A stretch of 32,000 bases of DNA from Cylindrospermopsis raciborskii Cr2010 (GCF_003367075.2 NZ_CP065936.1:2070001-2102000), one strand, 5' to 3'; numbered from the stretch's first letter, positions 3,451 through 20,388 are shown. Notes: generated by a model not told the origin, from the letters alone. Program-made: numbers and translations.

Positions 3451-4325
3451 ATGCTCACGTCGGAGGCAAAAAGCCGCTGACAATTTCCCCAAAGAATCCT
3501 TTTTAGACCCTGAGGTCTGAACTAAACCGTGTTGCTATTCTTGCAGTAGTAACTATGTTGGTACTTTCTAGCTGTGGTTACTGGGTATGGGAATGCCTCT
3601 ATTGGTTATGTTTTGGCATCAACACACCCTGTCCTACATTTCTCAGGCACGATTATTCATGATGCTTGTCATCAATCAGCCCATCGTAACCAACAGCTAA
3701 CGCCATATTGGGTCAAGTGCTAGCTTCCTGTGCCACTAGCCTTGCTTTCCCAGTTTTTACCAGATACACCTACAACACCATGGCAATGTCAATCATCCCA
3801 AAGATGACCCGGATCATTATGTTTCCACAGGTGGTCCACCGTGGTTAATCGCGGTGGAGATTTTGTACCATGAGGTGTTTTTCTTTCCAAAGGCAACTTT
3901 TTGGCGTAACATGAACTACTAGAATGGTTCCTTAGCTGATCATCTTTACTATTGTCTATATTTCATTCAATATCACTTTTAGGGCATATTCTCAACTTCT
4001 GGTTTGTCCCAGCTTTTGTAGTAGGCATAACACTGGGATTCTTTTGATTTACTTACCACATCGTCCATTTGTAGAGCGCGATCGGTGAAGAATGCTCGTG
4101 TATCCTGGCAAATCCTTTAATATGCTAATTTTAGGGCAGAATGTCATCTATTCATCATTTGTGCCTTCCACTATTTGGTACAATTATCAACCTGCCTACT
4201 ACCTGATGAAGCCCATTTAGATTGAGAAAGGTAGCCCCCAAACTTCCGGTTTATTACAAAAAGGATTTTTGAATTTCTATGATATTTCACTGGTCTTCAT
4301 TTTCATCACCATGAATAATAACTGA
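3451..4325 (+). pseudogene. Fatty acid desaturase-family (membrane di-iron, three His boxes) pseudogene
   Basis: An AAGGAG sits 7 nt upstream of the ATG at 3451, but a stop follows after 9 codons. His box 1 'HDACHQSAH' is at 3658-3684. His box 2 'LQHHGNVNHPKDDPDHY' is at about 3770-3826. His box 3 'IHHL' at 4150-4161 and the following 'WYNYQPAYYLMKP' at 4176-4217 lie in different frames. Several in-frame stops are present. Confidence 0.55.
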
Positions 4326-4527
4326 GAAATTTAATTGTTGAGGTTGTGGAAGTAGTACATTTTACGGTTAAGCACATCTAGTCTGAATTTTTCCGTTTAT
4401 TCTCTTCCTAATTCATAGATGCTAGCACCTACAGTAGTGAGTATACCAGCATTAATTCCCAACTAGAACCTAAACTAATTTGTGACCCCAGTAGGATAAT
4501 GCACCAAATACCAAGAAAGGTAAATGC

Positions 4528-4758
4528 TCATAATTGAAGCATAAAAAGCATTTGAGACTCTCTAGCTGTGCGGGTTTTTTCAAATTCCGTCTCGCTAGTA
4601 TATAGAAACCGCTCGGCAAAATTAAACCAGCGATTTAATTGTGTGATTATCCATTCTCTAATGGATGCTAAAGCCAAATACAAAGCTAAAGACCATAAAC
4701 AAGAACCAGCGATGGCTACTTTATCTATCGTGAATTGAAAAGGTAATATATCAAGCAT
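4528..4758 (-). CDS. Hypothetical small membrane protein, possibly itself a remnant
   Basis: This is a 76-aa ORF with one hydrophobic stretch ('VAIAGSCLWSLALYLALASI'). After its stop the same frame continues with more hydrophobic sequence ('AFTFLGIWCIILLGSQ...'), which suggests an interrupted larger gene. I recognise no family. Confidence 0.2.
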   Translation of the reverse strand: MLDILPFQFTIDKVAIAGSCLWSLALYLALASIREWIITQLNRWFNFAERFLYTSETEFEKTRTARESQMLFMLQL

Positions 4759-4843
4759 ACTAAAGATATTAAGTGATAAACTCCCATTTTACTTGAATTT
4801 GTCCTCAAATCCATATTTTATACTTAGAACTGATTATGTCATT

Positions 4844-6397
4844 ATGCCTAAACAATTTAACACTGCTGGCCCCTGCAAAGCCAACATTCACTATATGCTC
4901 TCTCCCACAGGGCGACTACCTCAGTTGAAAGCATTAATTGATGGAGAAAATTACTTTATCATTCATGCACCGCGACAAGTAGGCAAAACCACTGCTATGA
5001 TGGCCTTAGCTCAAGAATTAACTGACAGTAGGCAATACCTAGCTGTGATGTTAACCGTAGAAACCGGTGCGCCATTTCCAGATGCACCAGAACAAGCGCA
5101 ACAAAGTATCCTCAGACGTTGGCAGAATGAAATTCGGTTCCGAAAATTACCCTTGCCCACTTTAACCCAAATTCAAAGGGAGACCGAGACTTCTCCCCTA
5201 GATATTCAAACAGTCCTGCAAGGGTGGGCCATGGCTTCCCCCCTACCCTTAGTGGTCTTTCTGGATGAAATTGATTCTTTAGAGGATCAAACCCTCATAT
5301 CCATCCTTAGACAGTTGCGAGCGGGTTATCCCAATCGTCCCCAGGGTTTCCCCCATTCGGTGGGCTTAATTGGGATGCGGGACGTGCGGGACTACAAGGT
5401 TAAATCTGGTGGAAGTGAACGACTCAATACGTCTAGTCCGTTTAATATCAAGGCTGAATCCCTAACTTTAAGTAATTTTACTTTTACAGATGTCCAAAAT
5501 TTATATGAACAACATACAACAGCTACGGGACAGGTGTTTACCCCGGAAGCAGTTCAACAGGCATATTATTTAACCGATGGACAACCATGGTTAGTTAACG
5601 CCCTAGCTCGTCAAGCTACCCAGGTGTTAGTCCAGGATATGAATGAACCCATTACTGCTGAGGTGATTAACCAAGCCAAAGAAATGCTCATTCAGCGTCA
5701 GGATACCCATTTGGATAGTTTAGCAGAAAGATTACGGGAAGCGCGGGTCAAAACTATTATTGAACCAATTTTAGCAGGTGAGGACTTACCCGACGTACCA
5801 CCGGATGATATTCGTTACGTGCTGGATTTAGGTCTGTGTCGAGATCAAGGACAAGGACTGGAAATTGCCAATCCAATTTATAAAGAAGTTCTACCTTTAG
5901 TACTAAGTTATACAACTAGGGTTTCTATTGGAGCAATTGAACCTCTGTGGCTAAATGAACAAGGGGAATTATTACCCAATAAATTATTACATGCTTTTCT
6001 GGAGTTTTGGCGACAACACGGAGAACCATTGCTCAAGAGTGCGCCCTACCATGAGATTGCCCCCCATTTAGTTTTGATGGCATTTTTACACCGGGTGGTA
6101 AATGGTGGTGGTACGTTAGAACGGGAATATGCCATTGGTTCTGGGAGAATGGATATTTGTTTACGATATGGCAAGGTAGTGATGGGTATGGAACTCAAGG
6201 TGTGGCGTGAAAGAAAGTCAGATCCGTTAATCAAGGGTTTGACCCAACTGGATAAATACCTGGATGGGTTAGGATTAGATACAGGTTGGTTAGTGATTTT
6301 CGATCGCCGTCCCGGTTTACCACCCATGGGAGAGAGGATTAGTACGGAGGAGATTATTAGTCCTAATGGGCGCACCATTACCCTCATTCGTAGTTAG
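4844..6397 (+). CDS. P-loop NTPase / PD-(D/E)XK nuclease fusion protein, array copy 1 (modules K-A-X)
   Basis: The long ORF carries Walker A 'HAPRQVGKTT', Walker B 'LVVFLDEIDS' and a C-terminal 'EREYAIGSGRMDICLRYGKVVMGMELKVW' (D...E-x-K). The start is set at ATG 4844 ('MPKQFNTAGPC'), by homology with the other copies, rather than the track's TTG at 4793. Confidence 0.8.
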   Translation: MPKQFNTAGPCKANIHYMLSPTGRLPQLKALIDGENYFIIHAPRQVGKTTAMMALAQELTDSRQYLAVMLTVETGAPFPDAPEQAQQSILRRWQNEIRFRKLPLPTLTQIQRETETSPLDIQTVLQGWAMASPLPLVVFLDEIDSLEDQTLISILRQLRAGYPNRPQGFPHSVGLIGMRDVRDYKVKSGGSERLNTSSPFNIKAESLTLSNFTFTDVQNLYEQHTTATGQVFTPEAVQQAYYLTDGQPWLVNALARQATQVLVQDMNEPITAEVINQAKEMLIQRQDTHLDSLAERLREARVKTIIEPILAGEDLPDVPPDDIRYVLDLGLCRDQGQGLEIANPIYKEVLPLVLSYTTRVSIGAIEPLWLNEQGELLPNKLLHAFLEFWRQHGEPLLKSAPYHEIAPHLVLMAFLHRVVNGGGTLEREYAIGSGRMDICLRYGKVVMGMELKVWRERKSDPLIKGLTQLDKYLDGLGLDTGWLVIFDRRPGLPPMGERISTEEIISPNGRTITLIRS

Positions 6398-6455
6398 ATT
6401 CCCATAAATTTGAACCACATCTGAATCACAGTAGTACCTTAACTTATTGTCAATT

Positions 6456-8012
6456 ATGCCTAAACACTTTAATACTGCTGGACCTTGTCAATCTGATATC
6501 CACTATATGCTCTCTCCCACAGGGCGACTACCTCAGTTGAAAGCATTAATTGATGGACGCAATTACTTTATCATTCATGCACCACGACAAGTGGGCAAAA
6601 CCACTGCTATGATGGCCCTAGCTCAAGAATTAACTGACAGTGGGCAATACCTAGCTGTGATGTTAACCGTAGAAACCGGTGCGCCATTTCCAGATGCACC
6701 AGAACAAGCGCAACAAAGTATCCTCAGACGTTGGCAGAATGAAATTCGGTTCCGAAAATTACCCTTGCCCACTTTAACCCAAATTCAAAGGGAGACCGAG
6801 ACTTCTCCCCTAGATATTCAAACAGTCCTGCAAGGGTGGGCCATGGCTTCCCCCCTACCCTTAGTGGTCTTTCTGGATGAAATTGATTCTTTAGAGGATC
6901 AAACCCTCATATCCATCCTTAGACAGTTGCGAGCGGGTTATCCCAATCGTCCCCAGGGTTTCCCCCATTCGGTGGGCTTAATTGGCATGCGGGACGTGCG
7001 GGACTACAAGGTTAAATCTGGTGGGAGTGAACGACTTAATACATCTAGTCCGTTCAATATCAAGGCTGAATCCCTAACTTTAAGTAATTTTAGTTTTACA
7101 GATGTGCAAAATTTATACGAACAACATACAACAGCTACAGGGCAAGTATTTACCCTGGGAGCAGTTCAACAGGCATATTATTTAACCGATGGACAACCAT
7201 GGTTAGTTAACGCCCTAGCTCGTCAAGCTACCCAGGTGTTAGTAAAGGATGTGAAGCAACCCATTACTGCTGAGGTGATTAACCAAGCCAAGGAAATCCT
7301 CATCCAGCGTCAGGATACCCATTTAGATAGTTTGGCGGAAAGATTACGGGAAGAGCGGGTTAGGGATATTATTCAACCCATGTTAGCTGGTGAAGACTTA
7401 GCTGATACAGCAGAAGATAATTTACGATATGTCCTAGACTTGGGTTTATGTCGTCGCGATCGCGGGGGTGCATTAGAAATTGCTAACCCCATTTATCGGG
7501 AGATTTTACCTAAGACCTTAGCTGCAGTGGCGATCGCATCTCTAACTTCTGTGGAACCCAACTGGTTAAACTCTGATGGTACTCTCAATCCTCAAATTCT
7601 ATTAAACTCTTTCTTGGAATTTTGGCGACAACATGGGGAACCATTACTCAAAAGTGCGCCCTATCATGAAATTGCTCCCCATTTGGTGTTAATGGCATTT
7701 TTACACCGAGTGGTAAATGGTGGTGGTACGTTAGAGCGGGAATATGCCATTGGTTCTGGGAGAATGGATATTTGTTTACGCTATGGCAAGGTGGTGATGG
7801 GTATGGAACTCAAGGTGTGGCGTGAAAGAAAGTCAGATCCGTTAATCAAGGGTTTAACCCAACTGGATAAATATCTGGATGGGTTAGGATTAGATACGGG
7901 TTGGTTAGTGATTTTCGATCGCCGTCCCGGGTTACCCCCCATGGGAGAGAGGATTAGTACGGAGGAGGTTATTAGTCCTAGTGGGCGCACCATTACCCTG
8001 ATTCGTAGTTAG
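6456..8012 (+). CDS. P-loop NTPase / PD-(D/E)XK nuclease fusion protein, array copy 2 (modules Q-A-Y)
   Basis: Same motifs as copy 1. The start is set at ATG 6456 ('MPKHFNTAGPC'); the track starts at TTG 6447. The V2 cassette is form Y ('RDIIQPMLAGEDLADTAEDNLRYVLDLGLCRRDRGG...'). Confidence 0.8.
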   Translation: MPKHFNTAGPCQSDIHYMLSPTGRLPQLKALIDGRNYFIIHAPRQVGKTTAMMALAQELTDSGQYLAVMLTVETGAPFPDAPEQAQQSILRRWQNEIRFRKLPLPTLTQIQRETETSPLDIQTVLQGWAMASPLPLVVFLDEIDSLEDQTLISILRQLRAGYPNRPQGFPHSVGLIGMRDVRDYKVKSGGSERLNTSSPFNIKAESLTLSNFSFTDVQNLYEQHTTATGQVFTLGAVQQAYYLTDGQPWLVNALARQATQVLVKDVKQPITAEVINQAKEILIQRQDTHLDSLAERLREERVRDIIQPMLAGEDLADTAEDNLRYVLDLGLCRRDRGGALEIANPIYREILPKTLAAVAIASLTSVEPNWLNSDGTLNPQILLNSFLEFWRQHGEPLLKSAPYHEIAPHLVLMAFLHRVVNGGGTLEREYAIGSGRMDICLRYGKVVMGMELKVWRERKSDPLIKGLTQLDKYLDGLGLDTGWLVIFDRRPGLPPMGERISTEEVISPSGRTITLIRS

Positions 8013-8053
8013 ATTCCGATAAATTTGAATCACACCTTAAATTATTGCCGATT

Positions 8054-9607
8054 ATGTTTAAACACTTTAATACTGCTGGACCTTGCCAATCTGATATCCA
8101 CTATATGCTCTCTCCCACAGGGCGACTACCTCAGTTGAAAGCATTAATTGATGGACGCAATTACTTTATCATTCATGCACCGCGACAAGTGGGTAAAACC
8201 ACTGCCATGATGGCCCTAGCTCAAGAATTAACTGACAGTGGACAATACCTAGCTGTGATGTTAACCCTAGAAACCGGTGCGCCATTTCCAGATGCACCAG
8301 AACAAGCGCAACAAAGTATCCTGAGACGTTGGCAGAATGAAATTCGGTTTCGAAAATTACCTTTGCCTAATTTAACACAAATTGAAACAGAGACTGAGAC
8401 CTCTCCCTTAGATATTCAAACAGTTCTGCAAGCTTGGGCCATGGCTTCCCCTCTACCTTTAGTTGTGTTTTTGGATGAAATTGATTCTTTGGAAGATCAA
8501 ACTCTCATATCCATTCTCAGACAATTACGAGCGGGTTATCCCAATCGTCCCCAGGGTTTTCCCCATTCGGTGGGCTTAATTGGCATGCGGGATGTGCGGG
8601 ACTACAAGGTTAAATCTGGTGGAAGTGAACGACTCAATACGTCTAGTCCGTTTAATATCAAGGCTGAATCCCTAACTTTGAGTAATTTTAGTTTTACAGA
8701 TATTCAAAATTTATATGAACAACATACAACAGCTACGGGACAGGTGTTTACCCTGGGAGCAGTTCAACAGGCATATTATTTAACTGATGGACAACCATGG
8801 TTAGTTAACGCCCTAGCTCGTCAAGCTACCCAGGTATTAGTCCAGGATGTGAATCAACCCATTACTGCTGAAGTGATTAACCAAGCCAAAGAAATCCTCA
8901 TCCAGCGTCAGGATACCCATTTGGATAGTTTAGCAGAAAGATTACGGGAAGAGCGGGTCAAAGCTATTATTGAACCAATTTTAGCAGGTGAAGACTTACC
9001 CGACATACCACCAGATGATATTCGTTATGTGCTGGATTTAGGACTGTGTCGAGATCAAGGACAAGGCTTGGAAATTGCCAATCCAATTTATAAGGAAGTT
9101 CTACCTCTAGTGCTAAGTTACACAACTAGGGTTTCTATTGGAGCAATTGAACCTCTGTGGCTAAATGAACAAGGGGAACTATTACCTGATAAATTATTAC
9201 ATGCTTTTCTGGAGTTTTGGCGACAACACGGGGAACCATTACTCAAAAGTGCGCCCTACCATGAGATTGCTCCCCATTTGGTGTTGATGGCATTTTTACA
9301 TCGGGTAGTTAATGGTGGTGGTACTTTAGAGCGGGAATATGCCATTGGTTCTGGAAGAATGGATATTTGTTTACGCTATGGCAAGGTGGTAATGGGTATG
9401 GAACTCAAGGTGTGGCGTGAAAGAAAGTCAGATCCGTTAATCAAGGGTTTGACCCAACTGGATAAATACCTGGATGGGTTAGGATTAGATACGGGTTGGT
9501 TAGTGATTTTCGATCGCCGTCCCGGTTTACCACCTATGGGAGAGAGGATTAGTACGGAGGAGGTTATTAGTCCCACTGGGCGCACTATTACCCTAATTCG
9601 TAGTTAG
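8054..9607 (+). CDS. P-loop NTPase / PD-(D/E)XK nuclease fusion protein, array copy 3 (modules Q-A'-X)
   Basis: Same motifs. The start is set at ATG 8054 ('MFKHFNTAGPC'). Its V1 form A differs from the other A copies mostly at synonymous sites. Confidence 0.8.
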   Translation: MFKHFNTAGPCQSDIHYMLSPTGRLPQLKALIDGRNYFIIHAPRQVGKTTAMMALAQELTDSGQYLAVMLTLETGAPFPDAPEQAQQSILRRWQNEIRFRKLPLPNLTQIETETETSPLDIQTVLQAWAMASPLPLVVFLDEIDSLEDQTLISILRQLRAGYPNRPQGFPHSVGLIGMRDVRDYKVKSGGSERLNTSSPFNIKAESLTLSNFSFTDIQNLYEQHTTATGQVFTLGAVQQAYYLTDGQPWLVNALARQATQVLVQDVNQPITAEVINQAKEILIQRQDTHLDSLAERLREERVKAIIEPILAGEDLPDIPPDDIRYVLDLGLCRDQGQGLEIANPIYKEVLPLVLSYTTRVSIGAIEPLWLNEQGELLPDKLLHAFLEFWRQHGEPLLKSAPYHEIAPHLVLMAFLHRVVNGGGTLEREYAIGSGRMDICLRYGKVVMGMELKVWRERKSDPLIKGLTQLDKYLDGLGLDTGWLVIFDRRPGLPPMGERISTEEVISPTGRTITLIRS

Positions 9608-9670
9608 AAAAATGCGATCGCTAAGTAAAACGTAAATTATTATTTTGCTACTTATAAATTATACCTTACT

Positions 9671-11212
9671 ATGCCTAAACAATTTAACACTGCTGGACCT
9701 TGTCAATCTGATATCCACTATATGCTCTCTCCCACAGGGCGACTACCTCAGTTAAAAGCGTTAATTGATGGACGCAATTACTTTATCATTCATGCACCGC
9801 GACAAGTGGGCAAAACCACTGCTATGATAGCTTTAGCCCAAGAATTAACTGATAGTGGGGAGTATACAGCAGTGATGCTCTCCGTGGAAGTGGGGTCGGT
9901 TTTTCCTGATGAACCAGAACGTGCTGAAAGAGCCATTTTGGGTTCTTGGCAAGATGCAATTGATATTTGGCTTCCGCAAGACCTCCATCCCCCTTTTGAC
10001 CCAGAGCGTAGGGAGAATATTGGTGCTTTCCTGAAAAGTTGGGCAAAAAGCTCTCCTCGTCCCCTAGTGGTGTTCATTGATGAAATTGACTCGTTGCAAA
10101 ATCAAACGTTGATTTCAGTATTGCGACAGTTACGGGATGGTTTTCCCCGTCGTCCCCAGGGTTTTCCCCATTCGGTGGGCTTAATTGGCATGCGGGATGT
10201 GCGGGACTACAAGGTTAAATCTGGTGGAAGTGAACGACTCAATACGTCTAGTCCGTTTAATATCAAGGCTGAGTCCCTAACTTTGAGTAATTTTAGTTTT
10301 ACAGATATTCAAAATTTATATGAACAACATACAACAGCTACGGGACAGGTGTTTACCCTGGGAGCAGTTCAACAGGCATATTATTTAACTGATGGACAAC
10401 CATGGTTAGTTAACGCCCTAGCTCGTCAAGCTACCCAGGTATTAGTCCAGGATGTGAATCAACCCATTACTGCTGAGATGATTAACCAAGCCAAAGAAAT
10501 CCTCATTCAACGCCAGGATACCCATTTAGATAGCTTAGCAGAGCGATTACGGGAAGAGCGGGTTAAGACCATTATTGAACCAATTTTAGCAGGTGAGGAC
10601 TTACCCGACGTACCACCGGATGATATTCGTTACGTGCTGGATTTAGGTCTGTGTCGAGATCAAGGACAAGGACTGGAAATTGCCAATCCAATTTATAAAG
10701 AAGTTCTACCTTTAGTGCTAAGTTATACAACTAGGGTTTCTATTGGAGCAATTGAACCTCTGTGGCTAAATGAACAAGGGGAACTATTACCTGATAAATT
10801 ATTACATGCTTTTCTGGAGTTTTGGCGACAACACGGAGAACCATTGCTCAAAAGTGCGCCCTACCATGAGATTGCTCCCCATTTAGTTTTGATGGCATTT
10901 TTACACCGGGTGGTAAATGGTGGTGGTACGTTAGAACGGGAATATGCCATTGGTTCTGGGAGAATGGATATTTGTTTACGCTATGGCAAGGTGGTGATGG
11001 GTATGGAACTCAAGCTGTGGCGTGAAAGAAAGTCGGATCCTTTAATTAAGGGTTTAACCCAACTGGATAAATATCTAGATGGGTTAGGATTAGATACGGG
11101 TTGGTTAGTGATTTTCGATCGCCGTCCTGGTTTACCACCCATGGGAGAGAGGATTAGTACGGAGAAGGTTATTAGTCCTAGGGGACGCACCATTACCCTC
11201 ATTCGTAGTTAG
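9671..11212 (+). CDS. P-loop NTPase / PD-(D/E)XK nuclease fusion protein, array copy 4 (modules Q-B-X)
   Basis: Same scaffold. V1 is form B ('LSVEVGSVFPDEPERAERAILGSWQDAIDIWLPQDLHPPFDPERRENIGAFLKSWAKSSPRP'), which is 4 codons shorter than form A. Confidence 0.8.
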   Translation: MPKQFNTAGPCQSDIHYMLSPTGRLPQLKALIDGRNYFIIHAPRQVGKTTAMIALAQELTDSGEYTAVMLSVEVGSVFPDEPERAERAILGSWQDAIDIWLPQDLHPPFDPERRENIGAFLKSWAKSSPRPLVVFIDEIDSLQNQTLISVLRQLRDGFPRRPQGFPHSVGLIGMRDVRDYKVKSGGSERLNTSSPFNIKAESLTLSNFSFTDIQNLYEQHTTATGQVFTLGAVQQAYYLTDGQPWLVNALARQATQVLVQDVNQPITAEMINQAKEILIQRQDTHLDSLAERLREERVKTIIEPILAGEDLPDVPPDDIRYVLDLGLCRDQGQGLEIANPIYKEVLPLVLSYTTRVSIGAIEPLWLNEQGELLPDKLLHAFLEFWRQHGEPLLKSAPYHEIAPHLVLMAFLHRVVNGGGTLEREYAIGSGRMDICLRYGKVVMGMELKLWRERKSDPLIKGLTQLDKYLDGLGLDTGWLVIFDRRPGLPPMGERISTEKVISPRGRTITLIRS

Positions 11213-11275
11213 AAAAATGCGATCGCTAAGTAAAACGTACTTTATTATTTTGATGATTATAAATTATACTTTATC

Positions 11276-12832
11276 ATGGCTAAACAATTTAACACTGCTG
11301 GTCCGTGCAAAGCCAACATTCACTATATGCTTTCTCCCACAGGGCGACTACCTCAGTTGAAAGCATTAATTGATGGAGAAAATTACTTTATCATTCATGC
11401 ACCGCGACAAGTAGGCAAAACCACTGCTATGATGGCCCTAGCTCAAGAATTAACTGACAGTGGGCAATACCTAGCTGTGATGTTAACCGTAGAAACCGGT
11501 GCGCCATTTCCAGATGCACCAGAACAAGCGCAACAAAGTATCCTCAGACGTTGGCAGAATGAAATTCGGTTCCGAAAATTACCCTTGCCCACTTTAACCC
11601 AGATTCAAAGGGAGACCGAGACTTCTCCCCTAGATATTCAAACAGTCCTACAAGGGTGGGCCATGGCTTCCCCCCTACCCTTAGTTGTCTTTCTGGATGA
11701 AATTGATTCCTTAGAGGATCAAACCCTCATATCCATCCTTAGACAGTTGCGAGCGGGTTATCCCAATCGTCCCCAGGGTTTCCCCCATTCGGTGGGCTTA
11801 ATTGGGATGCGGGACGTGCGGGACTACAAGGTTAAATCTGGTGGAAGTGAACGACTCAATACGTCTAGTCCGTTTAATATCAAGGCTGAATCCCTAACTT
11901 TAAGTAATTTTAGTTTTACAGATGTCCAAAATCTATATGAACAACATACAACAGCTACGGGACAGGTGTTTACCCCGGAAGCAGTTCAACAGGCATATTA
12001 TTTAACCGATGGACAACCATGGCTAGTTAACGCCCTAGCTCGTCAAGCTACCCAGGTGTTAGTCCAGGATGTGAATGAACCCATTACTGCTGAGGTGATT
12101 AACCAAGCCAAAGAAATCCTCATTCAGCGTCAGGATACCCATTTGGATAGTTTAGCAGAAAGATTACGGGAAGAGCGGGTCAAAGCTATTATTGAACCAA
12201 TTTTAGCAGGTGAGGACTTACCAGATACCCCAGAGGATGATCGCCGGTTTTTGCTAGATTTAGGCTTAGTTAAGCGTAGTCCTTTGGGTGGACTAACCAT
12301 TGCCAATCCCATTTACCAGGAGGTGATCCCTCGTGTTTTATCCCAGGGTAGTCAGGACAGTTTACCTCAAATTCAACCCACTTGGTTAAATACTGACAAT
12401 AGTTTAAATCCCCAAGCTCTATTAAATGCTTTTCTGGAATTTTGGCGACAACATGGGGAACCATTACTCAGAAGTGCGCCCTACCATGAGATTGCTCCCC
12501 ATTTGGTATTAATGGCATTTTTACACCGGGTGGTAAATGGTGGTGGTACATTAGAACGGGAATATGCCATTGGTTCTGGGAGAATGGATATTTGTTTACG
12601 ATATGGCAAGGTGGTGATGGGTATGGAACTCAAGGTGTGGCGTGAAAGAAAGTCAGATCCGTTAATCAAGGGTTTGACCCAACTGGATAAATATCTAGAT
12701 GGGTTAGGATTAGATACGGGTTGGTTAGTGATTTTCGATCGCCGTCCTGGTTTACCACCCATGGGAGAGAGGATTAGTACGGAGAAGGTTATTAGTCCTA
12801 GGGGACGCACCATTACCCTCATTCGTAGTTAG
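11276..12832 (+). CDS. P-loop NTPase / PD-(D/E)XK nuclease fusion protein, array copy 5 (modules K-A-Z)
   Basis: Same scaffold. V2 is form Z ('TPEDDRRFLLDLGLVKRSPLGGLTIANPIYQEVIPRVLSQGSQDSLPQIQPTWLNTDNSLNPQALLNAF'). Confidence 0.8.
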   Translation: MAKQFNTAGPCKANIHYMLSPTGRLPQLKALIDGENYFIIHAPRQVGKTTAMMALAQELTDSGQYLAVMLTVETGAPFPDAPEQAQQSILRRWQNEIRFRKLPLPTLTQIQRETETSPLDIQTVLQGWAMASPLPLVVFLDEIDSLEDQTLISILRQLRAGYPNRPQGFPHSVGLIGMRDVRDYKVKSGGSERLNTSSPFNIKAESLTLSNFSFTDVQNLYEQHTTATGQVFTPEAVQQAYYLTDGQPWLVNALARQATQVLVQDVNEPITAEVINQAKEILIQRQDTHLDSLAERLREERVKAIIEPILAGEDLPDTPEDDRRFLLDLGLVKRSPLGGLTIANPIYQEVIPRVLSQGSQDSLPQIQPTWLNTDNSLNPQALLNAFLEFWRQHGEPLLRSAPYHEIAPHLVLMAFLHRVVNGGGTLEREYAIGSGRMDICLRYGKVVMGMELKVWRERKSDPLIKGLTQLDKYLDGLGLDTGWLVIFDRRPGLPPMGERISTEKVISPRGRTITLIRS

Positions 12833-12895
12833 AAAAATGCGATCGCTAAGTAAAACGTACTTTATTATTTTGATGATTATAAATTATACTTTATC

Positions 12896-14449
12896 ATGGC
12901 TAAACAATTTAACACTGCTGGTCCGTGCAAAGCCAACATTCACTATATGCTTTCTCCCACAGGGCGACTACCTCAGTTGAAAGCATTAATTGATGGAGAA
13001 AATTACTTTATCATTCATGCACCGCGACAAGTAGGCAAAACCACTGCTATGATGGCCCTAGCTCAAGAATTAACTGACAGTGGGCAATACCTAGCTGTGA
13101 TGTTAACCGTAGAAACCGGTGCGCCATTTCCAGATGCACCAGAACAAGCGCAACAAAGTATCCTCAGACGTTGGCAGAATGAAATTCGGTTCCGAAAATT
13201 ACCCTTGCCCACTTTAACCCAGATTCAAAGGGAGACCGAGACTTCTCCCCTAGATATTCAAACAGTCCTACAAGGGTGGGCCATGGCTTCCCCCCTACCC
13301 TTAGTTGTCTTTCTGGATGAAATTGATTCCTTAGAGGATCAAACCCTCATATCCATCCTTAGACAGTTGCGAGCGGGTTATCCCAATCGTCCCCAGGGTT
13401 TCCCCCATTCGGTGGGCTTAATTGGGATGCGGGACGTGCGGGACTACAAGGTTAAATCTGGTGGGAGTGAACGACTTAATACGTCTAGTCCGTTTAATAT
13501 CAAGGCTGAATCCCTAACTTTAAGTAATTTTAGTTTTACAGATGTCCAAAATCTATATGAACAACATACAACAGCTACGGGACAGGTGTTTACCCCGGAA
13601 GCAGTTCAACAGGCATATTATTTAACTGATGGACAACCATGGTTAGTTAACGCCCTAGCTCGTCAAGCTACCCAGGTGTTAGTCCAGGATGTGAATGAAC
13701 CCATTACTGCTGAAGTGATTAACCAAGCAAAAGAAATTCTCATTCAGCGTCAGGATACCCATTTGGATAGTTTAGCAGAAAGATTACGGGAAGCACGGGT
13801 TAGGGATATTATTCAACCCATGTTAGCTGGTGAAGACTTAGCTGATACAGCAGAAGATAATTTACGATATGTCCTAGACTTGGGTTTATGTCGTCGCGAT
13901 CGCGGGGGTGGACTAGAAATTGCTAACCCCATTTATCGGGAGATTTTACCTAAGACCTTAGCTGCAGTGGCGATCGCATCTCTAACTTCTGTAGAACCCA
14001 ACTGGTTAAACTCTGATGGTACTCAATCCTCAAATCCTCTTAAACTCTTTCTTGGAATTTTGGCGACAACATGGGGAACCATTACTTAAAAGTGCGCCCT
14101 ATCATGAGATTGCCCCCATTTGGTGTTAATGGCATTTTTACACCGGGTAGTAAATGGTGGTGGTACGTTAGAGCGGGAATATGCCATTGGTTCTGGGAGA
14201 ATGGATATTTGTTTACGCTATAGCAAGGTGGTGATGGGTATAGAAATTAAGATGTGGCGTGAAAGAAAGTCAGATCCTTTAATTAAGGGTTTGACCCAAC
14301 TGGATAAATACCTGGATGGGTTAGGATTAGATACAGGTTGGTTAGTGATTTTCGATCGCCGTCCTGGTTTACCACCTATGGGAGAGAGGATTAGTACGGA
14401 GGAGGTTATTAGTCCTAGGGGACGCACTATTACCCTCATTCGTAGTTAG
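12896..14449 (+). pseudogene. P-loop NTPase / PD-(D/E)XK nuclease fusion, array copy 6 (modules K-A-Y), disrupted by two compensating frameshifts
   Basis: Compared with copy 7 there is a 2-bp deletion ('actctcaatcc' becomes 'actcaatcc', about 14024) and a 1-bp deletion in a C-run (C6 becomes C5, about 14113-14117). The frame is restored after about 90 nt, but the shifted segment contains TAA at 14087-14089. This splits the gene into the track ORFs 12896-14089 and 14120-14449, which share one frame. Confidence 0.75.
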
Positions 14450-14507
14450 ATTCCCATAAATTTGAACCACATTTGAATCACAGTAGTACCTTAACTTATT
14501 GTCAATT

Positions 14508-16052
14508 ATGCCTAAACACTTTAATACTGCTGGACCTTGTCAATCTGATATCCACTATATGCTCTCTCCCACAGGGCGACTACCTCAGTTGAAAGCATTA
14601 ATTGATGGACGTAATTACTTTATCATTCATGCACCGCGACAAGTGGGCAAAACCACTGCTATGATAGCTTTAGCCCAGGAATTAACTGATAGTGGGGAGT
14701 ATACAGCAGTGATGCTCTCCGTGGAAGTGGGGTCGGTTTTTCCTGATGAACCAGAACGTGCTGAAAGGGCTATTTTGGGTTCTTGGCAAGATGCAATTGA
14801 TATTTGGCTTCCGGAAGACCTCCATCCCCCTTTTGACCCGGAGCGTAGGGAGACTATTGGTGCTTTCCTGAAAAGTTGGGCAAAAAGCTCTCCTCGTCCT
14901 CTAGTGGTCTTCATTGATGAAATTGACTCATTGCAAAATCAAACCTTGATTTCGGTATTGCGACAGTTACGGGATGGTTTTCCCCGTCGTCCTCGGGGTT
15001 TCCCCCATTCGGTGGGCTTAATTGGGATGCGGGACGTGCGGGACTACAAGGTTAAATCTGGTGGGAGTGAACGACTTAATACGTCTAGTCCGTTTAATAT
15101 CAAGGCTGAATCCCTAACTTTAAGTAATTTTAGTTTTACAGATGTCCAAAATCTATATGAACAACATACAACAGCTACGGGACAGGTGTTTACCCCGGAA
15201 GCAGTTCAACAGGCATATTATTTAACTGATGGACAACCATGGTTAGTTAACGCCCTAGCTCGTCAAGCTACCCAGGTGTTAGTCCAGGATGTGAATGAAC
15301 CCATTACTGCTGAAGTGATTAACCAAGCAAAAGAAATTCTCATTCAGCGTCAGGATACCCATTTGGATAGTTTAGCAGAAAGATTACGGGAAGCACGGGT
15401 TAGGGATATTATTCAACCCATGTTAGCTGGTGAAGACTTAGCTGATACAGCAGAAGATAATTTACGATATGTCCTAGACTTGGGTTTATGTCGTCGCGAT
15501 CGCGGGGGTGGACTAGAAATTGCTAACCCTATTTATCGGGAGATTTTACCTAAGACCTTAGCTGCAGTGGCGATCGCATCTCTAACTTCTGTAGAACCCA
15601 ACTGGTTAAACTCTGATGGTACTCTCAATCCTCAAATTCTCTTAAACTCTTTCTTGGAATTTTGGCGACAACATGGGGAACCATTACTTAAAAGTGCGCC
15701 CTATCATGAGATTGCCCCCCATTTGGTGTTAATGGCATTTTTACACCGGGTAGTAAATGGTGGTGGTACGTTAGAGCGGGAATATGCCATTGGTTCTGGG
15801 AGAATGGATATTTGTTTACGCTATAGCAAGGTGGTGATGGGTATAGAAATTAAGATGTGGCGTGAAAGAAAGTCAGATCCGCTAATTAAGGGTTTGACCC
15901 AACTGGATAAATACCTGGATGGGTTAGGATTAGATACAGGTTGGTTAGTGATTTTCGATCGCCGTCCTGGGTTACCACCTATGGGAGAGAGGATTAGTAC
16001 GGAGGAGGTTATTAGTCCTAGGGGACGCACTATTACCCTCATTCGTAGTTAG
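14508..16052 (+). CDS. P-loop NTPase / PD-(D/E)XK nuclease fusion protein, array copy 7 (modules Q-B-Y)
   Basis: Same scaffold, with the start at ATG 14508. The nuclease motif variant 'RYSKVVMGIEIKMW' still keeps the E-x-K residues. Confidence 0.8.
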   Translation: MPKHFNTAGPCQSDIHYMLSPTGRLPQLKALIDGRNYFIIHAPRQVGKTTAMIALAQELTDSGEYTAVMLSVEVGSVFPDEPERAERAILGSWQDAIDIWLPEDLHPPFDPERRETIGAFLKSWAKSSPRPLVVFIDEIDSLQNQTLISVLRQLRDGFPRRPRGFPHSVGLIGMRDVRDYKVKSGGSERLNTSSPFNIKAESLTLSNFSFTDVQNLYEQHTTATGQVFTPEAVQQAYYLTDGQPWLVNALARQATQVLVQDVNEPITAEVINQAKEILIQRQDTHLDSLAERLREARVRDIIQPMLAGEDLADTAEDNLRYVLDLGLCRRDRGGGLEIANPIYREILPKTLAAVAIASLTSVEPNWLNSDGTLNPQILLNSFLEFWRQHGEPLLKSAPYHEIAPHLVLMAFLHRVVNGGGTLEREYAIGSGRMDICLRYSKVVMGIEIKMWRERKSDPLIKGLTQLDKYLDGLGLDTGWLVIFDRRPGLPPMGERISTEEVISPRGRTITLIRS

Positions 16053-16110
16053 ATTCCCATAAATTTGAACCACATTTGAATCACAGTAGTACCTTAACTT
16101 ATTGTCAATT

Positions 16111-17646
16111 ATGCCTAAACACTTTAATACTGCTGGACCTTGTCAATCTGATATCCACTATATGCTCTCTCCCACAGGGCGACTACCTCAGTTGAAAGCA
16201 TTAATTGATGGACGTAATTACTTTATCATTCATGCACCGCGACAAGTGGGCAAAACCACTGCTATGATAGCTTTAGCCCAGGAATTAACTGATAGTGGGG
16301 AGTATACAGCAGTGATGCTCTCCGTGGAAGTGGGGTCGGTTTTTCCTGATGAACCAGAACGTGCTGAAAGGGCTATTTTGGGTTCTTGGCAAGATGCAAT
16401 TGATATTTGGCTTCCGGAAGACCTCCATCCCCCTTTTGACCCGGAGCGTAGGGACACTATTGGTGCTTTCCTGAAAAGTTGGGCAAAAAGCTCTCCTCGT
16501 CCTCTAGTGGTCTTCATTGATGAAATTGACTCATTGCAAAATCAAACCTTGATTTCGGTATTGCGACAGTTACGGGATGGTTTTCCCCGTCGTCCTCGGG
16601 GTTTCCCCCATTCGGTGGGCTTAATTGGGATGCGGGACTACAAGGTTAAATCTGGTGGAAGTGAACGACTCAATACGTCTAGTCCGTTTAATATCAAGGC
16701 TGAATCCCTAACTTTAAGTAATTTTAGTTTTACAGATGTCCAAAATCTATATGAACAACATACAACAGCTACGGGACAGGTGTTTACCCCGGAAGCAGTT
16801 CAACAGGCATATTATTTAACCGATGGACAACCATGGTTAGTTAACGCCCTAGCTCGTCAAGCTACCCAGGTGTTAGTCCAGGATGTGAATGAACCCATTA
16901 CTGCTGAGGTGATTAACCAAGCCAAAGAAATTCTCATCCAGCGTCAGGATACCCATTTGGATAGTTTAGCAGAAAGATTACGGGAAGAGCGGGTCAAAGC
17001 TATTATTGAACCAATTTTAGCAGGTGAGGACTTACCAGATACCCCAGAGGATGATCGCCGGTTTTTGCTAGATTTAGGCTTAGTTAAGCGTAGTCCTTTG
17101 GGTGGACTAACCATTGCCAATCCCATCTACCAGGAGGTGATTCCTCGTGTTTTATCCCAGGGTAGTCAGGACAGTTTACCTCAAATTCAACCCACTTGGT
17201 TAAATACTGACAATAGTTTAAATCCCCAAGCTCTATTAAATGCTTTTCTGGAATTTTGGCGACAACACGGGGAACCATTACTCAGAAGTGCGCCCTATCA
17301 TGAGATTGCTCCCCATTTGGTATTGATGGCATTTTTGCATCGGGTAGTTAATGGTGGTGGTACGTTAGAGCGGGAATATGCCATTGGTTCTGGGAGAATG
17401 GATATTTGTTTACGCTATGGCAAGGTGGTGATGGGTATGGAACTAAAGGTGTGGCGTGAAAGAAAGTCAGATCCGCTAATCAAGGGTTTGACCCAACTGG
17501 ATAAATACCTAGATGGGTTAGGATTACATACTGGTTGGTTAGTGATTTTCGATCGCCGTCCCGGATTACCACCCATGGGAGAGAGGATTAGTACGGAGGA
17601 GGTTATTAGTCCTAGTGAGCGCACCATTATCCTCATTCGTAGTTAG
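16111..17646 (+). CDS. P-loop NTPase / PD-(D/E)XK nuclease fusion protein, array copy 8 (modules Q-B-Z), with a 3-codon in-frame deletion
   Basis: Same scaffold, with the start at ATG 16111. 'GMRDVRDYKV' becomes 'GMRDYKV' through a 9-bp loss between the direct repeats GCGGGAC...GCGGGAC (about 16631). Confidence 0.75.
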   Translation: MPKHFNTAGPCQSDIHYMLSPTGRLPQLKALIDGRNYFIIHAPRQVGKTTAMIALAQELTDSGEYTAVMLSVEVGSVFPDEPERAERAILGSWQDAIDIWLPEDLHPPFDPERRDTIGAFLKSWAKSSPRPLVVFIDEIDSLQNQTLISVLRQLRDGFPRRPRGFPHSVGLIGMRDYKVKSGGSERLNTSSPFNIKAESLTLSNFSFTDVQNLYEQHTTATGQVFTPEAVQQAYYLTDGQPWLVNALARQATQVLVQDVNEPITAEVINQAKEILIQRQDTHLDSLAERLREERVKAIIEPILAGEDLPDTPEDDRRFLLDLGLVKRSPLGGLTIANPIYQEVIPRVLSQGSQDSLPQIQPTWLNTDNSLNPQALLNAFLEFWRQHGEPLLRSAPYHEIAPHLVLMAFLHRVVNGGGTLEREYAIGSGRMDICLRYGKVVMGMELKVWRERKSDPLIKGLTQLDKYLDGLGLHTGWLVIFDRRPGLPPMGERISTEEVISPSERTIILIRS

Positions 17647-17711
17647 ATTCCCATAAATTTGAACCACACCTTAAATTATTGCCGATTATGCCCAAACACT
17701 TTAACATTTAG
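17647..17711 (+). pseudogene. Truncated ninth array unit: spacer plus the first 7 codons ('MPKHFNI*')
   Basis: 17647-17687 matches the spacer that follows copy 2. The ATG at 17688 is followed by 'cccaaacactttaaca', which matches the gene 5' end. Homology then stops and a TAG follows at 17709-17711. Confidence 0.8.
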
Positions 17712-17724
17712 GGTTATTTAATTT

Positions 17725-17754
17725 AAAAAACTCCCCATCCTAGACGGTGGGGAG
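17725..17754 (-). terminator. Rho-independent terminator downstream of the GH15 gene
   Basis: On the minus strand the sequence reads CTCCCCA-(10-nt loop)-TGGGGAG followed by TTTTTT. It lies 60 nt after the stop at 17815. Confidence 0.7.
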
Positions 17755-17814
17755 TATGAAGGAGACTGTTAATTTTTAGATCGGTAAAAATCTAAATGAT
17801 CACAAAGAGTGGAA

Positions 17815-20388
17815 TTATAACTTATCGACTTGTGAAACTTCCCCACTTACAGGAGTTTGTAAACTGTGTTTTTCAGCTTCTTCCCAGATAGTTTTACCAT
17901 TGGCATCAACTTTGACAAACTTGTACTCAAAGCTAGTAGACGCAGGTAAGGAGACCTTAACGCTCCAGGTAGGATAACTAACCGCAGAGAGCTTAACACC
18001 GGAAGTGGGTTCCCAATTGCCTAGTAAGGGACTATTGCCAACCAAATACACATTCTCACCTGGTTTTGTGGTTGCATTTTTAGCGGTGAAAGTCACATCA
18101 GTTTGGGGTTTGTCACAAGCGTAGCGTTGACAAACTACATCCGGAGCATCACTCTTACCATCTTTAACGGCTACAATCAGGTTAATATATTCACCCATAG
18201 CCCAGCTAAGAGGACGTATAGAGCGTGTGGAAGTGCCAGGAAGATGAGATGCGGGAGTAATTGTTTCCCAACCTGTAATGGTAGTGCTGTTATTCCAAAC
18301 TTGCTCAGGAATAAATCCTGCTTCTGAAGACATGACTTTCAGATCTTTCAGATATTTTTGACCAGCACACCCATTACCAGATTTAGCAATTTCGTAAATC
18401 CCACGTTCAGCGGTGAAAATTGGCCACAGACGACCACGACCACTAGTATCAAAATTACGGTCGTCATTGTATTCACCATAGCCATCGTAGTTATACCGGA
18501 ACCAAGCTTCCGCTTCTACACCATCCTTAGAAATGGTTTGTTTCAAAATTTCATCATATTCAGGAATGGTTTCTAGAATTGTCCAGTCGTTGGCACTCAT
18601 CACCCCTAAACGTACCAACTCTAAAAAGCCACCATCAATGATGTAGCGCTGATCATGTGTTCCACCACCATTACCATAGGTCAGTTGCACACCATCATTG
18701 GGATTTTTATCGCTGGTGATTCTTACATAATACTGTTTATTACCATGATAACCAGTAGTTGTAAATGTCCAATTGGCAACGTTATTACGCCACTCATCGG
18801 CTTTTTTGAGATAATACTCAGCCGCACCTGGATCATTGGATTTTTTAGCCAAGTCAGCTGCACAGACTAATCCTGCAATTTCAGCAGCAATGGTGGAAGG
18901 TGAATAACCACGCATTTCTTCCCAGCGTTCTTGCTGAGTATAGGGTCCATATTTGGCTAAATATTCAGCTGCTAACTTAATTTTAGGCCACAAATCCGTG
19001 CGGTTAAGTTTCCAAGCCAAGATGATGGGCATTCCAGTTTGGTCCATCTGGGTGCCATTCCAGTATATCCTACCATCTACATAGTTATTTTGTGGAAAAC
19101 GACCAGGACGAGAATAGGGATCATCACTGGTAGTAGTCTGCATCTGAACATTGAAGAAATAGTCAACAGCTTCATTAGCTGACTCTGTATCACCAGCAGC
19201 AATCAAAGAACTAGCAAATTTGAACAAGTCACGGGGCCAAACCAGGTGGTAACCACCTTGATTTTTATCAGTGTTAGTTTCTCCCCAAGGTGTAGCAGGT
19301 CCTGCTACCATCGCACCATTACTCTTGTCTTGAATACTCTTCAGATTCATTGCTGCTAGGTAGTACTGGTCATCAGCCAATCCATTTTGATCACTGAGTT
19401 TAGCAGTATAAGCTACCCATTCTTTGGTGTAATCATTTTCTACCGCAGCCAAATCACTATTTAGAGTAGCATTTGCTACATTCATGGCAGCTTGCTCACT
19501 GTTACCAAATGCCAGTGCCACGTCAAAAGAAATCTTGGTATCAGTGGTATTGCCAAAATCTACCCAGCCAATTTGAGCAACGTTTCCACCAACAGCATTA
19601 TCATAATGCCAGTCCATGGTTTTATCGCCTGCTCCAACAAAAAGGTCTGTATAGCCATCGTTTTGAGCCACAAACCCATTAGACACCATTAAAGTGCCAC
19701 CAACGGTCTTCCAAGGTAGGGAAGTAGTGACAGCTGAAGAGGTAGAATTAGGCTCGGAAGCGGCTAAAAAGGTTCGACCATTGGATGACAGAGTGCGAGA
19801 GTTATCTCCACCCGTTGCTTGTGGTCCACTACAAGTATTAGCAGCACTACCACTACCCGAATTGTTGATAGATGGATTATTCAGCAGGTAGAGGTTATAG
19901 TCTTGGACTGTCTTTCCTGGTTCAAGAGTAGCGAAAGTAACTCTTTCAATTACAGTAGGACGATTGGGATCACTAAAAAATCTCTTAGTAATTTTCCAAC
20001 GTTTGTCTTTATCTGTAGTTGTTACTTCCCACACCATGGAGCGTTTATTAACCTGAGTAACTTTATGGTCTTGCTTGCGCTCTTCGTCACCCCAGGTTCT
20101 TTTGGCATCGGTGACTAAAAATTGCAAGTCAACATTTTGCACGTTATCCACAGTGGGATAAAACACCTCTGTTAAAATACCTTCTCCACCAGTGAAATAA
20201 ACATTGGATTTTTTGCCGGCTGAAGTACCCACAAAATCCTTGACTGAGGTTGCCCACAAGGAGGAAGCTCCAGGTGCACAAGGTGCATTTTCCGCTAAAA
20301 CAATTCCAGGATCTAGAAATACTGAACCTAGAGATACACAGGCAAAAACAAGTGATGCCAGTAAAATTGATAACTTTGACTTTCGCAT
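17815..20388 (-). CDS. Secreted GH15 glucoamylase/glucodextranase with a C-terminal CBM20 starch-binding domain
   Basis: 'GGYHLVWPRDLFKFASSLIAAGD' and the overall layout fit a bacterial GH15 enzyme with a glucodextranase-type N-domain. The C-terminus 'PGENVYLVGNSPLLGNWEPTSGVKLS...YPTWSVKVSLPASTSFEYKFVKVDANGKTIWE' is CBM20-like. The start is set at ATG 20388 ('MRKSKLSILLASLVFACVSLG', signal-peptide-like). The track ORF extends to a GTG at 20436. Confidence 0.85.
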   Translation of the reverse strand: MRKSKLSILLASLVFACVSLGSVFLDPGIVLAENAPCAPGASSLWATSVKDFVGTSAGKKSNVYFTGGEGILTEVFYPTVDNVQNVDLQFLVTDAKRTWGDEERKQDHKVTQVNKRSMVWEVTTTDKDKRWKITKRFFSDPNRPTVIERVTFATLEPGKTVQDYNLYLLNNPSINNSGSGSAANTCSGPQATGGDNSRTLSSNGRTFLAASEPNSTSSAVTTSLPWKTVGGTLMVSNGFVAQNDGYTDLFVGAGDKTMDWHYDNAVGGNVAQIGWVDFGNTTDTKISFDVALAFGNSEQAAMNVANATLNSDLAAVENDYTKEWVAYTAKLSDQNGLADDQYYLAAMNLKSIQDKSNGAMVAGPATPWGETNTDKNQGGYHLVWPRDLFKFASSLIAAGDTESANEAVDYFFNVQMQTTTSDDPYSRPGRFPQNNYVDGRIYWNGTQMDQTGMPIILAWKLNRTDLWPKIKLAAEYLAKYGPYTQQERWEEMRGYSPSTIAAEIAGLVCAADLAKKSNDPGAAEYYLKKADEWRNNVANWTFTTTGYHGNKQYYVRITSDKNPNDGVQLTYGNGGGTHDQRYIIDGGFLELVRLGVMSANDWTILETIPEYDEILKQTISKDGVEAEAWFRYNYDGYGEYNDDRNFDTSGRGRLWPIFTAERGIYEIAKSGNGCAGQKYLKDLKVMSSEAGFIPEQVWNNSTTITGWETITPASHLPGTSTRSIRPLSWAMGEYINLIVAVKDGKSDAPDVVCQRYACDKPQTDVTFTAKNATTKPGENVYLVGNSPLLGNWEPTSGVKLSAVSYPTWSVKVSLPASTSFEYKFVKVDANGKTIWEEAEKHSLQTPVSGEVSQVDKL

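Follow-up and report, generated by a model that had tools for sequence, protein, structure and literature searches.

A tandem array of eight related genes in the cyanobacterium Cylindrospermopsis raciborskii Cr2010, at positions 4844-17646 of a stretch of 32,000 nucleotides (GCF_003367075.2, NZ_CP065936.1:2070001-2102000; this whole stretch is here called the window), raises the question of what these genes are, how their variants arose and whether it means anything that every possible combination of two variable segments occurs among them. The encoded proteins belong to the CyrO family, matching proteins of C. raciborskii and Prochlorothrix with E = 0 and 74-96% identity over 100% of the length. 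The best matches, which are from Cylindrospermopsis raciborskii, are annotated as "ATP-binding protein" or "polyketide biosynthesis operon protein CyrO", and the locus of R. brookii D9 shows 74% identity to an array protein. The best explanation of the whole, to which a probability of about 0.6 is given, is a mosaic, recombining array of AAA+ ATPase/nuclease genes that would form a combinatorial specificity repertoire, probably employed in genome conflict.

Cassettes and recombination among the copies

The eight CyrO-family genes lie head to tail on the + strand with a period of about 1.6 kb, separated by spacers of 41-63 bp (Table 1). Alignment of the copies, both as proteins and as DNA, delimits two variable modules within otherwise conserved sequence. 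V1 (amino acids ~53-170) exists as form A in copies 1, 2, 3, 5 and 6 and as form B in copies 4, 7 and 8, while V2 (amino acids ~300-388) exists as X (copies 1, 3 and 4), Y (copies 2, 6 and 7) and Z (copies 5 and 8). A smaller N-terminal module reads CKAN..DGE (k) in copies 1, 5 and 6, and CQSD..DGR (q) in copies 2, 3, 4, 7 and 8. All six V1 x V2 combinations occur, AX and AY twice each, and the seven intact genes alone, without copy 6, still hold the complete set. The initial annotation had read from the sequence the same composition of every copy (with the A-Y of copy 6 frameshifted), the same dimorphic 5' module and the same full set with two combinations doubled, and had allowed that an assignment might prove wrong; both alignments agree with it throughout. 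Its description of simultaneously encoded paralogues rather than an invertible switch is likewise borne out by full-length genes with reassorting cassettes.

The 116 fixed differences between A and B are confined to nucleotides 159-498 of the unit, and X, Y and Z differ pairwise at 94-98 fixed positions, essentially all of them within nucleotides ~913-1171. Since these differences are so sharply bounded, the modules are cassettes and not chance variation. Six haplotypes made from a two-state and a three-state module need at least two exchanges; adding the N-terminal module gives eight distinct haplotypes, for which at least three are needed. This pattern proves recombination among the copies.

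Cassettes and backbone have had very different histories. Nucleotide divergence is 0.38-0.43 between cassette forms against 0.03-0.07 in the conserved segments, the flanking conserved segments being 93-98% identical among copies. Synonymous divergence (dS) between forms is 1.0-1.8 or saturated, as opposed to 0.02-0.33 in the flanks. V1 form B has 70-71% amino acid identity to homologues from Pseudanabaena and Prochloron and 56% to form A, so that the cassette forms are no closer to one another than to homologues of other cyanobacterial orders, while the conserved segments are 94-98% identical within the array and only ~70-75% identical to outside homologues. Divergent cassettes within a homogenised backbone point to concerted evolution of the backbone around ancient cassettes. 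The forms would accordingly be old lineages embedded in homogenised sequence, and not products of local hypermutation.

Recombination of the RecA type requires roughly 20-30 nucleotides of identity. Identical runs between different cassette forms are mostly 8-14 nucleotides long, compared with 38-206 nucleotides in the flanks, and exchanges should therefore be confined to the flanks, with the cassettes moving whole. The array evolves through unequal crossing-over together with segmental gene conversion: the conserved segments would serve as substrates for homologous recombination, while the V1 and V2 forms, differing at ~40% of nucleotides, would be unable to recombine internally and would be transferred as entire cassettes. 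Two and three forms would reassort in this way, and free assortment would readily fill all the combinations. The locus offers a clean natural example of limited concerted evolution, in which homogenisation stops at divergence boundaries.

Gene conversion in the array is recent. The window is collinear over positions 1-19601 with CP091284.1, a complete C. raciborskii genome (locus L001), and from 4500 to 19601 the two differ at ~46 sites, 25 of which fall within a 300-bp tract in copy 7. This tract shows 0 differences to copy 6 in the window and 0 to copy 2 in CP091284.1; since it matches a different donor in each strain, one of the strains has converted it since they diverged, and a single conversion event has been caught between two near-identical strains. 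Copy number changes as well: strain G7 contains one pair of copies (6 and 11) with 100% identity over 1615 bp and a second pair (7 and 12) with 99.6% identity, which indicates a recent block duplication through unequal crossing-over.

Module reassortment extends beyond the genus. A family scan with one genome per species gave 316 related stretches, from which 80 loci were kept; 70 of these 80 are single-copy, and tandem sets of 2-3 are found in Pseudanabaena, Phormidium tenue, Symploca and Prochloron. Variability among 89 homologues from outside the genus peaks in V1 and V2 (entropy ~1.05 versus 0.54-0.70 elsewhere). Pairwise identities of one conserved segment correlate with those of another (rho 0.73-0.79), those of V1 or V2 correlate far less with the conserved segments (rho 0.22-0.36), and those of V1 with V2 least of all (rho 0.19). 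Clustering of the cassette cores at 70% identity separates at least 26 types of V1 and at least 16 of V2, and in 13 four-gamete squares every pairing of two V1 types with two V2 types is seen. Weak correlations and four-gamete squares together make module reassortment a property of the whole family, whose pool of forms is far larger than 2 x 3.

Table 1. Positions in the window of the array copies and associated features
Feature	Position	Strand	V1	V2	Description
Copy 1	4844-6397	+	5002-5334	5749-6004	517 amino acids, k-A-X
Copy 2	6456-8012	+	6614-6946	7361-7619	518 amino acids, q-A-Y
Copy 3	8054-9607	+	8212-8544	8959-9214	517 amino acids, q-A-X
Copy 4	9671-11212	+	9829-10149	10564-10819	513 amino acids, q-B-X
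Copy 5	11276-12832	+	11434-11766	12181-12439	518 amino acids, k-A-Z
Copy 6	12896-14449	+			k-A-Y, pseudogene in window sequence
Copy 7	14508-16052	+	14666-14986	15401-15659	514 amino acids, q-B-Y
Gene-conversion tract in copy 7	15095-15395	+			300 bp, 25 of ~46 differences versus CP091284.1
Copy 8	16111-17646	+	16269-16589	16995-17253	511 amino acids, q-B-Z
Intergenic spacer (example)	17647-17687	+
Start of ninth unit, truncated	17688-17706	+			first 19 nucleotides (ATGCCCAAACACTTTAACA), after normal spacer

Individual copies carry further marks of their history. The V1 of copy 3 is a sub-form of A (91% nucleotide identity with copy 1), and copy 8 lacks the three codons (VRD) that follow GMRD. 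Two deletions disrupt copy 6, one of 2 bp at ~14021 and one of 1 bp in a C-run at ~14112, with 91 nucleotides between them and two stop codons inside this shifted stretch. Both lesions are of the slippage type (CT lost from CTCT, and one C from a run of six), and both are absent from the intact counterpart of 518 amino acids in CP091284.1; they could represent strain-specific decay or a sequencing error. The truncated ninth unit marks the right edge of the duplication. The spacers fall into two families, one beginning with ATTCCCATAAATTTGAA (41 or 58 bp) and the other with AAAAATGCGATCGC (63 bp, with a HIP1 site), and are themselves mosaic.

Completeness of the combinations

Sister arrays, the cassettes of which were typed by BLAST against the window forms, contain 4-13 copies in an order that varies among strains (Table 2), and R. 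curvata has two paired copies, kBZ and kAX, at another locus. The cassette polymorphism is therefore kept in related strains rather than replaced by single or uniform copies, a pattern that the initial annotation had named as fatal to its reading. Of what it proposed to look for across strains, the changing copy order is seen and the same six combinations recur, though in four of seven distinct arrays only; no cassette forms beyond A/B and X/Y/Z were found in the sister arrays typed within the genus. As a separate observation, the first array copy in GCA_001676585.1 (L009:3943-5106) and GCA_000175835.1 (L010:7164-8327) encodes 387 amino acids that include the N-terminal module and X but lack V1; this variant, the product of an internal deletion, has been annotated as intact.

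Table 2. Copy composition of the array in the window and in related genomes
Genome	Copies	Composition in order	Missing combinations
Window and CP091284.1	8	kAX qAY qAX qBX kAZ kAY qBY qBZ	none
GCA_051062915.1 and GCA_018139025.1	9	kAX qBX qAY qAX qAZ kAZ kAY qBY qBZ	none
Strain G7	13	kAX qBX qAY qAX qAZ kAY qBY qAX qAZ kAZ kAY qBY qBZ	none
GCA_001676585.1	about 8	V1-deleted first copy, qAY qAX kAY qBX qAZ qBY, terminal fragment	BZ
C. curvispora	7	qAY qAX qBX kAZ qBZ qAZ ?BX	BY
Strain DSH	4	kAX qBX qAY (pseudogene) qAZ, then IS1 element	BY, BZ

The presence of all six combinations in the window is real, yet it is neither statistically nor evolutionarily special. With five A, three B, three X, three Y and two Z, the set is complete when X, Y and Z are each paired with one of the three B copies, and enumeration gives this outcome in 18 of 56 arrangements (P = 0.32), so that under free assortment completeness is weak evidence of anything further. 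The "combinatorial saturation" stressed at first consequently deserves little weight, the more so as three of the seven related arrays lack one or two combinations.

Two other accounts of the array itself bear on this question. Selection might maintain the full set, each combination being distinct and needed and balancing or diversifying selection keeping them all; this would fit the four complete arrays, those of 9 and 13 copies among them, the catalytic motifs kept in every intact copy, the low ratios of nonsynonymous to synonymous substitution (dN/dS 0.02-0.2) in the conserved parts and the persistence of the same two plus three forms in two species and at a second locus in R. curvata. It is nevertheless unlikely, for random assortment alone yields completeness with P = 0.32, BY is missing in C. 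curvispora, BZ in GCA_001676585.1 and both BY and BZ in strain DSH, and the content of the array is evidently not under tight regulation, given its duplicated combinations (AX, AY, AZ) and a pseudogene copy. Moreover, the four complete arrays have in common their first copy, kAX, and their last two, qBY-qBZ, so that common ancestry is probable and they probably represent one retained ancestral state rather than independent occurrences. That the copies are chimeras created by mis-assembly of repeats is very improbable: the 4.5 kb to the left of the array do look degraded in comparison with the sister genome, and copy 6 has slippage-type frameshifts, but the eight copies and their order recur in an independent complete genome that differs at ~46 sites over 15 kb, the junctions of copies 2-3-4-5 are reproduced on two metagenome contigs, and the cassette set is found, differently ordered, in further complete genomes. 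As between selection for diversity and a by-product of recombination, the evidence leans to the by-product, arising from recombination between conserved flanks and from retention of functional copies under purifying selection.

The outcome is reminiscent of several known systems. As in the HsdS subunits of type I restriction-modification enzymes, two variable modules within conserved sequence are reassorted through the conserved parts to give combinatorial variants, and by analogy the bipartite-specificity logic of HsdS may apply to the array proteins too. However, these have no sequence or fold relation to HsdS, the array contains no silent partial cassettes, all variants being full-length genes present at once, and it changes on an evolutionary time scale and not as a programmed switch. 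The window proteins give no Pfam match to HsdS (Methylase_S), an array unit contains no inverted repeats, and no recombinase was found either among the annotated window genes, which do not include the open reading frames at 25199-25597, 26926-27594 and 27655-28143, or among the array neighbours in sister strains. An invertible switch of the HsdS or shufflon kind was rejected on these three grounds. A contingency locus with repeat-tract phase variation was rejected as well: Tandem Repeats Finder shows no qualifying repeat in the array, the only simple-sequence tract being an 11-nucleotide motif repeated twice in two spacers. The likeness to HsdS and contingency loci drawn at the outset thus holds as an analogy of outcome, and does not extend to HsdS homology, an invertible segment or repeat-tract phase variation.

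Bacterial antigenic-variation cassettes and the clusters of nucleotide-binding leucine-rich repeat (NLR) genes of plants and fungi are similar in their clustered paralogues, in the combination of unequal crossing-over with patchy conversion, and in their conserved scaffolds with variable recognition parts. Unlike such systems, the array has no single expression site with silent donors, and its products are predicted to be cytoplasmic ATPase-nucleases, not surface antigens; the predicted ATPase is a classical AAA+ and not a STAND NTPase (signal transduction ATPase with numerous domains).

Predicted proteins and candidate function

Each copy is predicted to encode an AAA+ ATPase resembling the origin recognition complex (ORC)/Cdc6 and RuvB proteins, with a lid, a winged helix and a C-terminal PD-(D/E)xK nuclease domain. 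The final AlphaFold model, built on 104 diverse relatives (mean predicted local distance difference test, pLDDT, 86; predicted template modelling score, pTM, 0.70), superseded an earlier one based on a shallow alignment (pLDDT 67) once distant relatives had been added. Its AAA+ core comprises beta1 (37-41), Walker A (47-49), beta2 (66-71) and a helix at 82-100, followed by extra helices (107-114 and 121-131) in front of the Walker B strand (136-141), a helical lid (214-297) and the winged helix (300-354). The Walker A GKT (47-49) and Walker B DEID (141-144) are invariant in all eight copies, copy 6 included. Motifs, model, Pfam and Foldseek agree on AAA+ membership with an ORC/Cdc6-RuvB-like order of core, lid and winged helix: AAA_35, AAA_16 and AAA_22 match the array proteins weakly and all 69 close relatives examined, and the best solved structures are the archaeal AAA+ proteins 2qen and 2fna, followed by RuvB, replication factor C (RFC) and ORC/Cdc6, with E down to 2e-10. 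Neither the search of the Protein Data Bank with a single protein sequence, which returned nothing, nor that with a 104-sequence profile, which returned marginal RFC Walker A matches only, nor Foldseek against viral structures, which gave generic AAA+ and RFC matches only, added anything to this picture.

The C-terminal domain (378-517) is modelled as alpha-beta-beta-beta-alpha-beta, with helices at 378-399 and 403-420, strands at 424-430, 435-442 (with D437) and 445-454 (with E450 and K452), a helix at 462-476 and a strand at 480-487. In the model the aspartate stands on the second strand and E-x-K on the third, as in the PD-(D/E)xK superfamily fold, and Pfam gives weak matches to PDDEXK_9 and NucS_C. 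All of the 104 relatives have D437, and E428, E450 and K452 reach at least 90% conservation among them; D437, E450 and K452 are present in the seven intact copies and in the downstream open reading frame of copy 6.

Some known families approach this architecture. The DUF1703 proteins (PF09820 + PF08011) likewise join an N-terminal AAA-type ATPase to a C-terminal PD-(D/E)xK nuclease in ~520 amino acids, and their paralogues are expanded in Cardinium cCpun and a midge Rickettsia (Siozios et al. 2019; PMC6387759). Both groups have undergone lineage-specific multi-copy expansion and intragenic recombination, with function undefined (PMC6387759), but the Cardinium paralogues have a mean identity of 39% with no homogenisation between them reported (PMC6387759), whereas the array copies are strictly tandem, with 93-98% homogenised backbones and two discrete cassette positions. 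The window proteins match neither PF09820 nor PF08011 at E <= 0.01, and of the 69 close relatives six match PDDEXK_9 and one AAA-ATPase_like at E <= 0.05. The metagenomic protein P0122 (40% identity) passes the Pfam thresholds of both AAA-ATPase_like and PDDEXK_9 (scores of 33.0 against a cut-off of 26.1, and 26.3 against 25.5), which links the CyrO family to the DUF1703 architecture; the two are probably sister branches of related architecture. P0122 is a fused tandem pair, its 993 amino acids containing two ATPase modules in one chain; the second half is a complete CyrO-like unit, and it is this half that passes both thresholds. The ORC/Cdc6 and archaeal ATPase_2 proteins (2qen, 2fna), and RuvB, have the same order of AAA+ core, lid and winged helix, but show only 13-15% identity to the array protein and lack the nuclease domain, and a replication role like that of the ORC/Cdc6 type is not suggested for the array proteins. 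A STAND NTPase (NACHT/NB-ARC/AP-ATPase) was considered and rejected: none is present among the top 50 solved structures, all of them classical AAA+, and there is no repeat domain. Matches to NPHP3_N/iSTAND are weak and occur in distant relatives only.

Mapped onto the model, V1 is predicted to begin where helix 1 ends and to reach as far as helix 3, the extra helices ahead of Walker B containing most of its differences and the indels, and V2 to cover the winged helix and the linker into the nuclease. The V1 helical insertion, between beta2 and the Walker B strand, presumably occupies the position of the initiator-specific motif of ORC/Cdc6. In Orc1/Cdc6 the insertion before Walker B and the winged helix both contact DNA. 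By this analogy V1 and V2 could be linked to DNA contacts, and would then determine the targets or partners recognised by an ATP-dependent nuclease, the array being a germline-encoded specificity repertoire for genome conflict, either in defence against mobile DNA or in association with it. We infer a role in specificity and conflict from the architecture, the hypervariability of the modules, the patchy multi-copy distribution and the neighbourhoods. Over 8000 close relatives of the CyrO family were scored, several homologue loci are plasmid-borne, and 10 of the 125 genes flanking homologues in other cyanobacteria are tyrosine integrases lying 25-50 bp downstream, others matching Uma2, DndC, HNH, type II methyltransferase, prokaryotic Argonaute (pAgo), Cas5d and transposases. 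A bolder version is tentative at best, namely that a multicellular cyanobacterium possesses in its CyrO arrays a germline-encoded immune repertoire of a combinatorial kind, in which each ORC/Cdc6-like ATPase-nuclease would read its target through two surfaces, the insertion before Walker B (V1) and the winged helix (V2), and recombination would reshuffle these recognition modules both among tandem paralogues and throughout the cyanobacterial family. If true, this would be a previously unrecognised defence family with bipartite, cassette-encoded specificity, resembling HsdS half-sites or the evolution of plant NLR clusters.

Several findings weigh against a conflict repertoire. Related Pseudanabaena genomes supply most of the defence and mobile-element neighbours, so that their counts are not phylogenetically independent, and the flanks of the 80 loci contain no conserved partner gene; in C. 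raciborskii the array stands among ordinary metabolic genes. The array proteins match no NCBIfam model, PADLOC-DB v2 gives no match at E <= 0.01 save a marginal one to mad8 (E = 0.007, 0 stretches), and PHROGs returned nothing useful either; a scan of viral contigs gave no homologue. The dN/dS of 0.2-0.4 between cassette forms shows purifying selection, positive selection being unseen at this coarse level, and promoter-like and terminator-like matches in the array are no more frequent than in shuffled sequence. In addition, the surfaces that V1 and V2 would occupy could be subunit interfaces.

This last point leads to the idea of mixed AAA+ hetero-oligomers, in which V1 and V2 would set subunit pairing and the array would supply parts of one or a few machines. 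The top fold matches of the RuvB, RFC and ORC types act as oligomers, some of them as hetero-oligomers, V1 covers core elements near the usual inter-subunit face, and the genes are tightly packed with no terminators found in the spacers by the same scan. The idea is nonetheless quite improbable, because 70 of the 80 related loci are single-copy, so that the protein works without paralogous partners, and 4-13 copies per strain are hard to square with a fixed stoichiometry. Still less can be said for the role implied by the database name, that of a regulator of cylindrospermopsin biosynthesis. The name CyrO originates from one copy that in some strains stands at the border of the cyr toxin cluster (PMC3922686), and the literature treats cyrO as a possible regulator of undefined function (PMC3922686; PMC5834425). 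However, cyrO occurs in a non-toxic strain and is absent or unlinked in other producers (PMC3922686; PMC5834425), no toxin cluster gene adjoins the array, the family is widespread in non-producing cyanobacteria, myxobacteria and Frankia, and a predicted nuclease domain is not suggestive of a pathway regulator; it is hardly credible that the array serves this purpose.

A combinatorial AAA+/nuclease repertoire remains the preferred reading. The name "CyrO" is unsafe as a marker of cylindrospermopsin genes; it has so far been the label, as a putative toxin-cluster regulator, of a large family that is multi-copy in many cyanobacteria. The literature searches returned no description of a tandem array or of a cassette structure, and those on PF14516, raciborskii arrays and conflict systems (Kaur et al. 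2020) none of the CyrO family, so that the mosaic array system is apparently undescribed. Its two independently reassorting modules suggest a specificity code, for which the array supplies all six natural chimeras.

Some arrangements of homologues deserve mention in their own right. Single-copy homologues of Pseudanabaena and Symploca have a same-strand tyrosine recombinase 25-50 bp downstream at ~10 loci (L021, L022, L028, L063, L069, L082 and others), a recurrent pair that may mark an integrative element. On a Pseudanabaena plasmid (L059:9352-10270) there is a head-to-head inverted duplication of ~410 nucleotides, covering the upstream region and the first ~270 nucleotides of the gene, with arms 83% complementary, and at L045 two full homologue copies stand head to head; in neither of these two arrangements was evidence of a switch seen.

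Flanking DNA and HIP1 sites

The DNA on both sides of the array has features of its own. Positions 1-4550 of the window differ from CP091284.1 by 224 substitutions (transition:transversion ratio 2:1) and 116 small indels (87 deletions and 29 insertions) that are not tied to homopolymers, and the change is abrupt, ~290 bp ahead of copy 1. None of the five genes that are annotated for this segment in sister strains is intact: an HSP70-like gene, unknown genes of 203 and 474 amino acids, a fatty-acid desaturase and a gene of 127 amino acids. This segment may be low-quality sequence, or may have decayed or been imported. The first three of these genes, found in CP091284.1 at L001:1437-5220 (equivalent to window ~1-3350), may form another uncharacterised system, the 203-amino-acid protein having a weak, nuclease-like match to HSDR_N_2.

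The right flank (window 17815-20436; L006, L007, L009 and L093-L095) is a rearrangement point. The window and CP091284.1 have an intact glucoamylase gene at this place; three genomes have a glucoamylase remnant (CBM_20 only) followed by genes for a rhomboid protein and a DnaB with intein, and three others have the rhomboid gene without the remnant, in strain DSH after an IS1 gene. An IS1 transposase is also found near the array in GCA_018139025.1.

The highly iterated palindrome HIP1 (GCGATCGC) occurs 11 times in the window, against 0.07 expected, at positions that include 7456, 7530, 9614, 11219, 12839, 13896, 13970, 15496 and 15570. HIP1 sites were considered as cassette borders and rejected, for they lie inside the Y cassettes and the type II spacers rather than at boundaries: each Y cassette contains two and each type II spacer one, and cassettes of the forms X, Z, A and B are free of them.

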